Positions 3,408-5,494 of a DNA stretch of 8,933 bases are shown here, in pieces. A program made the position numbers and the translations under genes. Numbering within the stretch: position 1 is the stretch's first letter; each line of letters opens with the position of its first letter. This stretch comes from a virus (Duplodnaviria; Heunggongvirae; Uroviricota; Caudoviricetes). The notes under the pieces are model-generated. The model searched no databases. It worked only from the letters and a program-made list of their open reading frames with translations, and was not told the DNA's origin. The stretch lies in the IMG/VR virus record IMGVR_UViG_2703718803_000022, one strand, 5' to 3'.

Positions 3408-3866
3408 ATGACCACTTTTACCAAAGATCGACTGCTGACAATCCAGCATTGGCGCGAAACATACGGACCGGGTAGCAACGTTGTGCTTCCAGCAGAAGAA
3501 GCGGAAGAGCTGGCACGGATTGCGCTGGCATCACTGGCAGCAGAGCCAGTTATGTTCTGTATATCAGGACAAAATGTAGATTCAGAAGAACATGTATCAA
3601 CCAGCAAAGCGGTTGTTGATGCCTGGGTTGAAGAATGGAATCAGGTTGACGGAAGTCCTGGCGAACCACTGTACAAAACTATGCCACTCTACTGTCACGC
3701 TGCCTTACCAGCGCCGGTAGTGCCTGAAGGACTGGTTAAAGCGGTGCGTTTTTATGAGCAGGTAAAAAATGAGAATCCGCCAGTTGGGACTGGTGCGTGG
3801 AAAGACGCTGTTGACTGGGTGCTCGAAGAGGCTTGCCAGGCTGTAAATACAGACATCAAAGGATGA
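3408..3866 (+). CDS. Modular phage protein, paralog A: conserved about 47-aa N-terminal module with a unique C-terminal domain
   Basis: AAGGTGA RBS 7 nt upstream. N-terminus MTTFTKDRLLTIQHWRETYGPGSNVVLPAEEAEELARIALASLAAEPV is near-identical to that of the gene at 4583; the C-terminal 105 aa are unrelated to it. Confidence 0.7.
   Translation: MTTFTKDRLLTIQHWRETYGPGSNVVLPAEEAEELARIALASLAAEPVMFCISGQNVDSEEHVSTSKAVVDAWVEEWNQVDGSPGEPLYKTMPLYCHAALPAPVVPEGLVKAVRFYEQVKNENPPVGTGAWKDAVDWVLEEACQAVNTDIKG
3429..3532 (+). repeat. Direct repeat copy 1: 104-bp stretch identical to 4604-4707 (similarity extends over 3408-3550)
   Basis: Base-by-base comparison of the two gene starts. Perfect identity 3429-3532 vs 4604-4707 at an offset of 1175 bp; about 6 mismatches across the 143-bp similar region. 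Confidence 0.9.
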
Positions 3867-3871
3867 ACGAT

Positions 3872-4069
3872 ATGGCAACCAACAATCGTAAAGCCAAGAT
3901 GCTAATTTCCCGTGTATACAGACTTTGCTACCCCAGCCAGTGGTTGAGAGTTAGCAATCGCCGTGTGGTGTTGTTCTCATTTTCTGGAATTGCCAGAGAG
4001 GGAGTCAAAGATAAGCGCAGCGCGGCGCAAAACCGCTGGAAAAAACATTTGCGCACTAAAGGAGAGTGA
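3872..4069 (+). CDS. Hypothetical small basic protein (65 aa); coding status uncertain
   Basis: ATG 3872 with AAGGA about 9 nt upstream (alternative in-frame ATG at 3863 in ATGA overlap with the upstream stop). Exactly fills the gap before the next gene. Composition rich in R/S/W/C is atypical, so this may instead be an untranslated spacer. Confidence 0.35.
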   Translation: MATNNRKAKMLISRVYRLCYPSQWLRVSNRRVVLFSFSGIAREGVKDKRSAAQNRWKKHLRTKGE

Positions 4070-4070
4070 T

Positions 4071-4586
4071 ATGGCGTTAACACACCGCGAACTCTGTCAG
4101 ATTGCGTACAAGTTCCTTAAGCGCAACGGGTTCAAGGTTTGTTTTCATGACCGCTTTATAGCTGTAACCAGTACCGGAGAACAGCCAGATGCTATGGGGT
4201 TCAGAAATTCAGCATCATGCCTGATAGAGGCGAAGTGTTCTCGTGCTGACTTGTTGGCAGATAGAAATAAGCGTTTCCGTAAAAATCCCTCACTTGGCAT
4301 GGGCGACTGGCGATTCTTTATTAGTGAGCCGGGAATTATTTCAGTTGAGGATTTACCTCCCGGCTGGGGATTACTTCACGTTGTTAACGGAAGAGTACGG
4401 AAAGTACATGGGTGGCCCAAGGGTAATTGCTGTTGGGGTAATCCTGACGATAAGCCATTTACTGGAAATAAGCAGGTTGAATGCGATTACATGTTATCTG
4501 CATTAAGGCGCATGGAGTTGAGAGGGCACCTTAATGAAATATATGACGGTGTAATTGTTAATAAGAAAGAAGGAAACGCGGCATGA
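4071..4586 (+). CDS. PD-(D/E)XK nuclease-like protein (restriction-endonuclease fold, possibly VRR-NUC-like)
   Basis: 171 aa. Strong RBS AAAGGAGAG 6 nt upstream. N-terminal helix, then hydrophobic strands, then ...GEQPD(40)AMGF...ASCLIE(53)AK(55): a canonical PD-x13-ExK arrangement. Family assignment is by motif only. Confidence 0.6.
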   Translation: MALTHRELCQIAYKFLKRNGFKVCFHDRFIAVTSTGEQPDAMGFRNSASCLIEAKCSRADLLADRNKRFRKNPSLGMGDWRFFISEPGIISVEDLPPGWGLLHVVNGRVRKVHGWPKGNCCWGNPDDKPFTGNKQVECDYMLSALRRMELRGHLNEIYDGVIVNKKEGNAA

Positions 4587-5494
4587 TCACTATTACCAAA
4601 GAGCGACTGCTGACAATCCAGCATTGGCGCGAAACATACGGACCGGGTAGCAACGTTGTGCTTCCAGCAGAAGAAGCGGAAGAGCTGGCACGGATTGCGC
4701 TGGCATCGCTGGAAGCAGAGCCGGTGGCAAAGATTATAGCTCATTACCCATTAGGGGTTGACGTAGGCAAACAAAAATTCGTACAGGCCATTAGAGAGCT
4801 TCCTGACTTTGGCGGATATCTATTTGCCGCCCCTCCAGCGCCGATAGTGCCGGAAGAAATGTATTGGCAGGATGCGCCAGTTGAAGGCAGCAGCAAAGCG
4901 GCTGCATACGCTACAGGCTGGAACGATTGCCGCGAAGCCATGCTTCAGTCCGGAAACTTTCGGGAAAATAAAGATTCGTCAACCAATAATTTTCGGAAAA
5001 TCCCGGAAGCGTCAACCAGCTCTCCGGTAACTCCGGCTCTTCTGCCTGGTGGTTTCACCATTGAGGAGGCGAAGGAATTACATGAAGACCTGGTACGCAG
5101 CCACATAAGCAAGGCCTTAAGTGGCGAAAAGATGAAAAAGAAAGATCGCGATGCTGATTTGCGCTGGATTCATGGCGTTATAGTTCAGGCAGCGTGGTTT
5201 GTAAAAGCATCACTGGAGCAGAATGCACTATCGGGCAACTCTACGGTAACTCCGGATGGTTGGATAAGCTGTAGTGAGCGAATGCCTGAAAAGAACCAGA
5301 ATGTGCTTATTTCGGTGAATTTCGATAGATCTCTGGTTGAACCGCTAATATGCTCCGCACGCTATACAGGAAGCACCTTTCGGCGTGGGCAGATAACGGT
5401 TGCGCCTGGTAATGGTATTGATGGTAATGGTATTGAACAGGCCACACACTGGATGCCGCTACCGGAACCGCCGCAGGAGGTTAACCGTGGCTAA
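4583..5494 (+). CDS. Modular phage protein, paralog B: conserved N-terminal module with a DUF551-like C-terminal domain
   Basis: 303 aa. ATGA overlap with the upstream gene. N-terminus shared with the 3408 gene. C-terminal region ...DGWISCSERMPEKNQNVLIS...THWMPLPEPP matches my recollection of the DUF551 signature (W-I-x-x-x-ERLP ... HWMPLPEPP). Contains a 15-bp tandem duplication encoding GNGID-GNGIE. Confidence 0.75.
   Translation: MITITKERLLTIQHWRETYGPGSNVVLPAEEAEELARIALASLEAEPVAKIIAHYPLGVDVGKQKFVQAIRELPDFGGYLFAAPPAPIVPEEMYWQDAPVEGSSKAAAYATGWNDCREAMLQSGNFRENKDSSTNNFRKIPEASTSSPVTPALLPGGFTIEEAKELHEDLVRSHISKALSGEKMKKKDRDADLRWIHGVIVQAAWFVKASLEQNALSGNSTVTPDGWISCSERMPEKNQNVLISVNFDRSLVEPLICSARYTGSTFRRGQITVAPGNGIDGNGIEQATHWMPLPEPPQEVNRG
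4604..4707 (+). repeat. Direct repeat copy 2: identical to 3429-3532
   Basis: As above. Confidence 0.9.

Follow-up and report, generated by a model that had tools for sequence, protein, structure and literature searches.

A direct repeat coding for a conserved protein head is a likely joint of homologous recombination between accessory genes of Stx phages

The DNA analysed here, IMG/VR virus record IMGVR_UViG_2703718803_000022, is a stretch of 8,933 nucleotides (nt) that we call the window. It covers the int-proximal early-left (exo-xis) arm of a lambdoid Shiga toxin (Stx) prophage located at wrbA in O26:H11-type E. coli. Our subject is a pair of accessory genes, A and B, that begin with the same coding module. 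The module encodes the N-terminal head of both proteins, and its two copies bracket the body of gene A, a small open reading frame (ORF) and a gene of 171 amino acids (aa). The features of this region are as follows.

3408..3550, plus strand: first copy of the module, equal to codons 1-48 of gene A (the head); identical core at 3429-3532.
4583..4725, plus strand: second copy of the module, equal to codons 1-48 of gene B (the head); identical core at 4604-4707.
3408..3866, plus strand: gene A, 152 aa, with the head, a variable middle, a PAPVVPE linker and a conserved C-terminal body; phrog_660.
4583..5494, plus strand: gene B, 303 aa, with the head, a middle part, a PAPIVPE linker, repeats and DUF551 at aa 226-298.
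3872..4069, plus strand: small basic ORF, 65 aa; phrog_1380.
4071..4586, plus strand: 171-aa gene with a PD...ExK-like motif (PDAMGF...CLIEAKCS); its TGA overlaps the ATG of gene B.
3533..4707, plus strand: presence/absence segment of 1,175 bp, spanning the body of gene A, the small ORF, the 171-aa gene and the core of module copy 2.
3699..3734, plus strand: second homology between A and B (PAPVVPE linker), partner at 4826-4861, 78% identity over 36 nt.
3172..3405, plus strand: gene upstream of copy 1 (context type U1), still joined to the hybrid gene in single-copy phages.

An earlier note, written from the letters of this DNA, had reported perfect identity between 3429-3532 and 4604-4707. 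This was confirmed for all 104 nt, at an offset of 1,175. The full direct repeat is 143 nt long (3408-3550 and 4583-4725), with both copies in the same orientation and 96% identical. Since the next-longest exact repeat in the window measures only 15 nt (the 9-nt tandem array at 5871 aside), chance is excluded and the match reflects homology. Identity is perfect in the centre and decays toward both ends, where 6 flanking differences separate the copies. The start of the repeat coincides with the ATG of both ORFs, and the first 48 residues of the two proteins differ at 4 positions (T2I, F4I, D7E and A44E). Both start codons lie behind a Shine-Dalgarno sequence (AAGGTG or AAGGA) and both ORFs are intact. 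The shared N-terminal module described in the note therefore stands, whereas its description of the C-terminal parts as unrelated does not hold throughout, because the linker motif is common to both proteins (AALPAPVVPE in A, AAPPAPIVPE in B).

Of 5,426 complete E. coli genomes, 47 contain the two-copy structure with equal spacing, as do 57 phage records. Between 3100 and 5600, Stx1a phages LC744185-LC744192 and E. coli E2865 match the window at 100% identity; between 400 and 8300, identity to the window is 99.9% in O26:H11 strain 11368 and in E2865, and 100% in seven further complete genomes. A perfect 104-nt core is rare but not unique: it was observed in 21 of 612 pairs of module copies taken from different contexts (3.4%), such pairs typically differing at 2-8 of the 104 core sites.

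The earlier note had proposed to look for genomes with a single copy of the module and no intervening cassette. Such genomes exist in the predicted form. P13374, the Stx2a phage carried by the O104:H4 strain of the 2011 outbreak, and E. coli 09-00049 have the sequence of the window with 1,175 bp taken out, without a single mismatch over 2542-3532 plus 4708-5240 (991 + 533 nt). When the deletion product constructed in silico was used as a query, E. coli 09-00049 matched in one unbroken piece. The boundaries of the 1,175-bp segment can be placed anywhere inside the 104-bp identity. Next to it, both sequences carry the A-type variants at 3412, 3417 and 3428 and the B-type variants at 3533, 3538 and 3548. 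As the A-type variants lie 5′ and the B-type variants 3′ of the core, the crossover is located within the core. The hybrid thus has its junction inside the conserved segment and flanks identical to its putative parents, as a natural recombinant does. The single-copy form was found in about 29 complete E. coli genomes (the 76 that cover the deletion-product query minus the 47 with two copies), versus 47 genomes for the two-copy form.

Both putative parental types were also found. In the P-type, represented by a P22-like prophage with an ERF recombinase (loci L172 and L173 of our set), module A, the small ORF and the 171-aa gene follow one another, the whole at 95.8% identity. The gene that comes after the 171-aa gene has a different head here, so that the module is single-copy. 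In the Q-type, represented by the Stx1 phage AU5Stx1 (L004), the 171-aa gene is followed by module B and there is no gene A; AU5Stx1 is identical to the window over 4131-5240 (1,110 nt).

To see how the module is combined with its surroundings, we compared 89 head copies from 87 loci, drawn from phage records, E. coli genomes and 80 IMG/VR contigs. Fifteen upstream types and 11 downstream types were seen in 29 combinations, and the limits of the shared segment were sharp. Of 353 pairs whose upstream types differ, 276 lose homology no more than about 10 nt from the ATG; of 317 pairs whose downstream types differ, 259 lose it at about nt 140-150. The module therefore has the two properties of a mosaic joint, unrelated flanks on both sides and breakpoints clustered at its ends. 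Tandem copies are uncommon: among about 170 loci examined there are only two tandem arrangements, that of the window and another (L087, L101 and L103) with a spacing of 831 nt, in which the copies are 93% identical and the longest exact run is 31 nt.

Exchange is also seen from the side of the bodies. The C-terminal body of gene A, GLVKAVRFYEQVK...WKDAVDWVL, is found in other phages, 91-96% identical, where it comes after Ead_Ea22 heads or after a third head type (MTTFTDEDKELIKEI...). The module, the Ead_Ea22 heads and the third head all finish with a short motif, (I)ALASLEAE(P/A)V. Two of the weakest matches, HK620 and HK633, share just the last about 40 nt of the module. In L172 and L173, the position after the 171-aa gene (4682-4876) is occupied by an alternative head (MTTLTDKEMIKEIKERIGSLDVRDNIERRAYEIALASLEAKP) that has only the last about 27 nt (IALASLEA) in common with the module. 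This suggests that the IALASLEA motif may be a second, more widely shared recombination joint.

The head belongs to a large set of proteins. An exhaustive HMMER search of 1.84 billion cluster representatives retrieved 557 head-bearing sequences at E ≤ 0.001, 363 of them at E ≤ 1e-10; this search was used in place of an earlier one, run with the 48-aa head only, that had returned just fragments of at most 84 aa. Architectures were examined in the best 150 of the 557, each from a different 50%-identity cluster. In these, head identity is 81-93% and protein length ranges from 65 to 418 aa; the head is N-terminal in nearly all, at residues 1-48 in most, and internal in two. Fourteen head columns of the alignment are invariant and 24 nearly so. 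The bodies are far more diverse: in the 105 proteins whose body measures 40 aa or more, at least 40 types can be told apart by the 45 residues that follow the head, and 30 C-terminal types by the last 60 residues. Pfam detected DUF551 in 40 of the 150, dATP/dGTP pyrophosphohydrolase in 3, DUF4752 in 1 and no family in 106. The head itself has no Pfam or NCBIfam model, and no description of it was found in the literature searched.

The module is also carried by P1/P7-like plasmid prophages at 88-89.5% identity (NC_050152, P7; MH445380, P1; FO818745, RCS47), and the family therefore crosses the lambdoid/P1 divide. In E. coli, plasmids account for about 600 of the matches to region 3100-5600, which number roughly 6,700.

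Comparison of 35 DNA alleles of the head indicates that the constraint acts on the protein and not on the DNA sequence itself. Of 36 variable sites, 22 are at third codon positions, the ratio of nonsynonymous to synonymous polymorphism (pN/pS) is 0.13 and pS reaches 0.33; the DNA sequence as such is not conserved, since synonymous sites vary freely. An AlphaFold2 model of gene A built with 47 sequences contains two predicted helices in the head, residues 6-19 and 29-43, at a low mean confidence (predicted local distance difference test, pLDDT, 59.9). The head has perhaps an oligomerisation or docking role.

We consider it likely that general homologous recombination at a head-coding patch of homology explains the repeat, the reassortment of flanks, the two-copy form and the hybrid form. 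The head would be a conserved two-helix N-terminal unit of about 48 aa. The accessory proteins that carry it would form a very large mosaic family, with genes in the early-left (exo-xis) region of temperate phages of enterobacteria (lambdoid, P22-like and P1-like). Selection at the protein level would hold the head DNA at 80-100% identity amid differing surroundings and so maintain a patch of homology, at which, we infer, host RecA or phage recombinases could join different upstream genes to different bodies. The two-copy form would most likely have arisen from a crossover between a P-type and a Q-type phage in the shared 171-aa gene (about 96-97% identical). A crossover in the 104-bp core would then yield the hybrid of the O104:H4 type, either within one molecule, as a deletion, or between two phages, as an independent crossover of P-type and Q-type. 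As the flanking variants place it, the core is the crossover site whichever direction the events ran.

This proposal is in line with known behaviour of temperate phages. Mosaicism is driven by phage recombinases that act on short and diverged homologies, about 30 bp being enough for Red-beta, and such relaxed recombination has been linked to the mosaic joints of lambdoid phages (De Paepe et al. 2014, PMC3945230; Martinsohn et al. 2008, PMC2327257). As at those joints, a short conserved segment lies here amid unrelated DNA, blocks that are identical through recent exchange end there, recombination functions are encoded by the phage, and small gene fragments are exchanged rather than whole functional modules. 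Unlike at the usual lambdoid joints, the patch is a protein-coding head under purifying selection that is reused by hundreds of proteins, and one genome has two copies of it in direct orientation, which gives a clean insertion/deletion polymorphism. The exo-xis region found in Stx phages and its mosaic Ea22 proteins, which combine a common N-terminal part with portable C-terminal domains, DUF551 being one, have been described (PMC10834534, PMC8614690). Our genes resemble mosaic Ea22 in lying in the same region and operon, in joining a conserved N-terminus to unrelated C-terminal domains, DUF551 among them, and in that the gene A body is found behind Ead_Ea22 heads too. In contrast to Ea22, their head does not carry the Ead_Ea22 signature (no PF13935 match) and is without a family model. 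With RecA-dependent or single-strand-annealing deletion between direct repeats, the locus shares perfect 104-bp repeats placed 1,175 bp apart and genomes that differ by one repeat unit plus the spacer; unlike in a strict case of such deletion, the event is deduced here from genomes, and a crossover between phages can give the same product.

Other explanations of the repeat were weighed against general recombination. That an assembly or collapse error duplicated the segment, one of the outcomes that would have undone the earlier note, has next to no chance of being correct: arrangement and spacing recur in the 47 complete genomes and 57 phage records, which come from different laboratories, and the copies differ at their 6 flanking positions and each run on into a different intact ORF. 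It is very improbable that the repeat is conserved for a role at the nucleotide level (RNA structure, small RNA or its target, regulatory site) with the peptide secondary. Nothing specific speaks for this other than the high DNA identity in the window; the RNA fold of the 143 nt is unremarkable (z = -0.66), the whole window has no credible Rfam match (a chance snoRNA at E = 0.41), promoter-like and terminator-like sites occur at the level expected from shuffled sequences, and the variation lies mostly at synonymous sites, as the pN/pS value indicates. Gene conversion within this prophage, by which older and diverged paralogous heads would have been homogenised, is unlikely, even though a perfect centre with decay at both ends is what a conversion tract looks like and most pairs from different contexts are less similar than this one. 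The exact copy-B allele is present in single-copy AU5Stx1, inside its 1,110-nt block of identity with the window, and the core allele of the window occurs in five different contexts, single-copy phages included. Intragenomic conversion is not required, because single-copy phages already carry the same core allele. The other tandem arrangement, which is independent, has not been homogenised, and its 93% identity also ruled out a general concerted evolution of tandem heads. The earlier note had suggested recent recombination or gene conversion; identical blocks of 0.5-1.1 kb across phage backbones bear out recombination, and conversion is the part that is not needed.

The note had further seen in the locus a built-in site for domain swapping or cassette exchange. 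In Rhs and contact-dependent inhibition (CDI) toxin loci, a conserved coding segment precedes variable C-terminal modules, and recombination between repeats deletes the intervening DNA and fuses a new C-terminus. A dedicated and selected switch of this kind, alternating between body A plus the cassette and the head-B hybrid as with Rhs/CDI orphan modules, could draw on the exact deletion product found in nature, on the hundreds of different bodies behind the head and on an identity that ranks in the top 3.4% of copy pairs. It is nevertheless improbable, and nothing dedicated was found. The repeats are direct, and instead of silent or promoterless orphan cassettes lacking their own start there are two complete genes, each with an ATG and a Shine-Dalgarno sequence of its own. 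The neighbourhood contains no invertase, no reverse transcriptase and no integron feature; Pfam, NCBIfam and PADLOC searches of the neighbouring genes detected no dedicated site-specific recombinase or reverse transcriptase, the sole recombinase of this kind being the prophage integrase (7024-8358). The head varies freely at synonymous sites, two copies are present in only about 5% of loci, the second tandem type has just a 31-nt exact run, and none of the 37 closely matching complete genomes described below is without the cassette. Unlike in Rhs/CDI orphan switching, both copies are independently translatable, with no evident toxin/immunity pair and no evidence of selection for switching. A broader proposal concerns function: the 48-aa head would be a docking or oligomerisation domain bringing hundreds of effector bodies to one host or phage target, within a huge polymorphic effector family whose diversification is favoured by recombination at the head and in which tandem head genes act as low-frequency effector switches. 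We regard this as a rather unlikely reading.

Several points weigh against general recombination at the head as the explanation. Recombination at the module is deduced from sequence comparison. Among complete genomes, 37 match window 400-8300 over 80% or more of its length; all of them keep both copies, none having lost the cassette, and deletion is therefore not frequent enough for fixation in that lineage. The two-copy and single-copy sequences, as compared here, do not polarise the direction of change. No PDB or Pfam relative points to a function of the head, and its structural model is, at this pLDDT, too poor for fold comparison. Finally, E. coli Stx phages and the closest relatives are over-represented in our sample of loci.

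The proteins outside the head have few recognisable relatives. Gene B matches DUF551 (PF04448) at aa 226-298 with 76.5 bits (cut-off 22), whereas the Pfam scan found no DUF551 match in gene A and no Ead_Ea22 (PF13935) match in either gene. No Pfam or NCBIfam family was found for gene A, the small ORF or the 171-aa ORF, and no NCBIfam model for gene B; gene A, the small ORF and the 171-aa ORF all belong to PHROG families of unknown function. Sequence and profile searches of PDB gave no relatives for gene B or for the gene A family, and a PADLOC search for defence systems gave nothing meaningful. Gene B contains a 33-nt tandem repeat (4955-4985 and 4988-5018) and, at 5017-5036 and 5236-5255, two occurrences of an 'S.VTP' motif that flank an extra sub-module (5040-5235).

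The 171-aa gene is 97-100% conserved and usually lies directly 5′ of a module-headed gene. It had been labelled nuclease-like on the strength of the D...ExK motif, and this label found no confirmation: there was no Pfam match even at E = 10, no relative in PDB, and a single-sequence AlphaFold2 model with a pLDDT of 48 was too poor for fold comparison. Here the 65-aa and 171-aa ORFs are one frame apart, with one base between stop and start. A single family, phrog_9263 (230 aa), spans both as one protein, so that the two ORFs must be fused in some phages. In several of the 37 genomes mentioned above the 171-aa gene is interrupted by IS600. This IS3-family element (1,264 bp, 3-bp target duplication at window 4166-4168) is found in Stx1a_NIID111609 (L091, 1570-2833) and in several O26 genomes, and many LC616xxx Stx2a phages carry it too, judged by size difference. 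An extra 1,267 bp in some relatives had been considered as a possible reciprocal duplication product; this was rejected, the extra DNA being the IS600 insertion in the 171-aa gene. In the RefSeq annotation (Prokaryotic Genome Annotation Pipeline, PGAP) of all genomes inspected, the intact 171-aa ORF is called 'frameshifted' and intact gene B appears as two DUF551 pseudogene fragments. These pseudogene calls on uninterrupted ORFs are probably an annotation artefact of the mosaic family.

On its 5′ side, the repeat region is preceded by genes for an AAA_24 ATPase and an anti-RecBCD protein and by an Ead/Ea22-like gene, the last at 2772-3212 (PF13935, 67.8 bits, cut-off 27). The phage recombination functions, which could act on the repeats, are the following.

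423..2007, plus strand: phage recombination functions as a block.
423-1103, plus strand: AAA_24 ATPase, a recombination function that we take to be Sak4-type.
1100-1687, plus strand: 195-aa ORF without family, partner of the AAA_24 ATPase.
1711-2007, plus strand: anti-RecBCD protein, a recombination function.

Phages with the same exo-xis block carry other recombinases: RecT/Exo in P13374 and 09-00049, Bet/Exo in AU5Stx1 and ERF in L173. On the other side of gene B, a DUF1627 gene (5678-6049) contains at 5871-5897 a 9-nt tandem repeat, GTGCAGCCA, that encodes VQP repeats and varies in copy number; E. coli 09-00049 has 36 nt more (four units). The integrase at 7024-8358 is a tyrosine integrase, and its gene overlaps the wrbA reading frame by 4 nt. 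In the wrbA remnant (8355-8933) this frame continues from phage DNA: the prophage gives the gene a new 5′ end and a 192-aa WrbA ORF is kept.

As far as these comparisons go, the behaviour of the locus is the homology-driven mosaicism of temperate phages and involves no new mechanism. What is new is this particular head, its breadth, and the full set of natural parents and products. The locus is an unusually clean natural record of the shuffling of accessory genes in phages, since sequenced Stx phages, among them those of O26:H11 and of the strain behind the 2011 O104:H4 outbreak, include the parents, the two-copy intermediate and the single-copy hybrid, with perfectly identical flanks. The mosaic nature of the family probably explains the annotation problems by which intact members are called pseudogene fragments in RefSeq. 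The unannotated N-terminal head domain is common to hundreds of exo-xis proteins, and it could merit a family model and a search for its binding partner.

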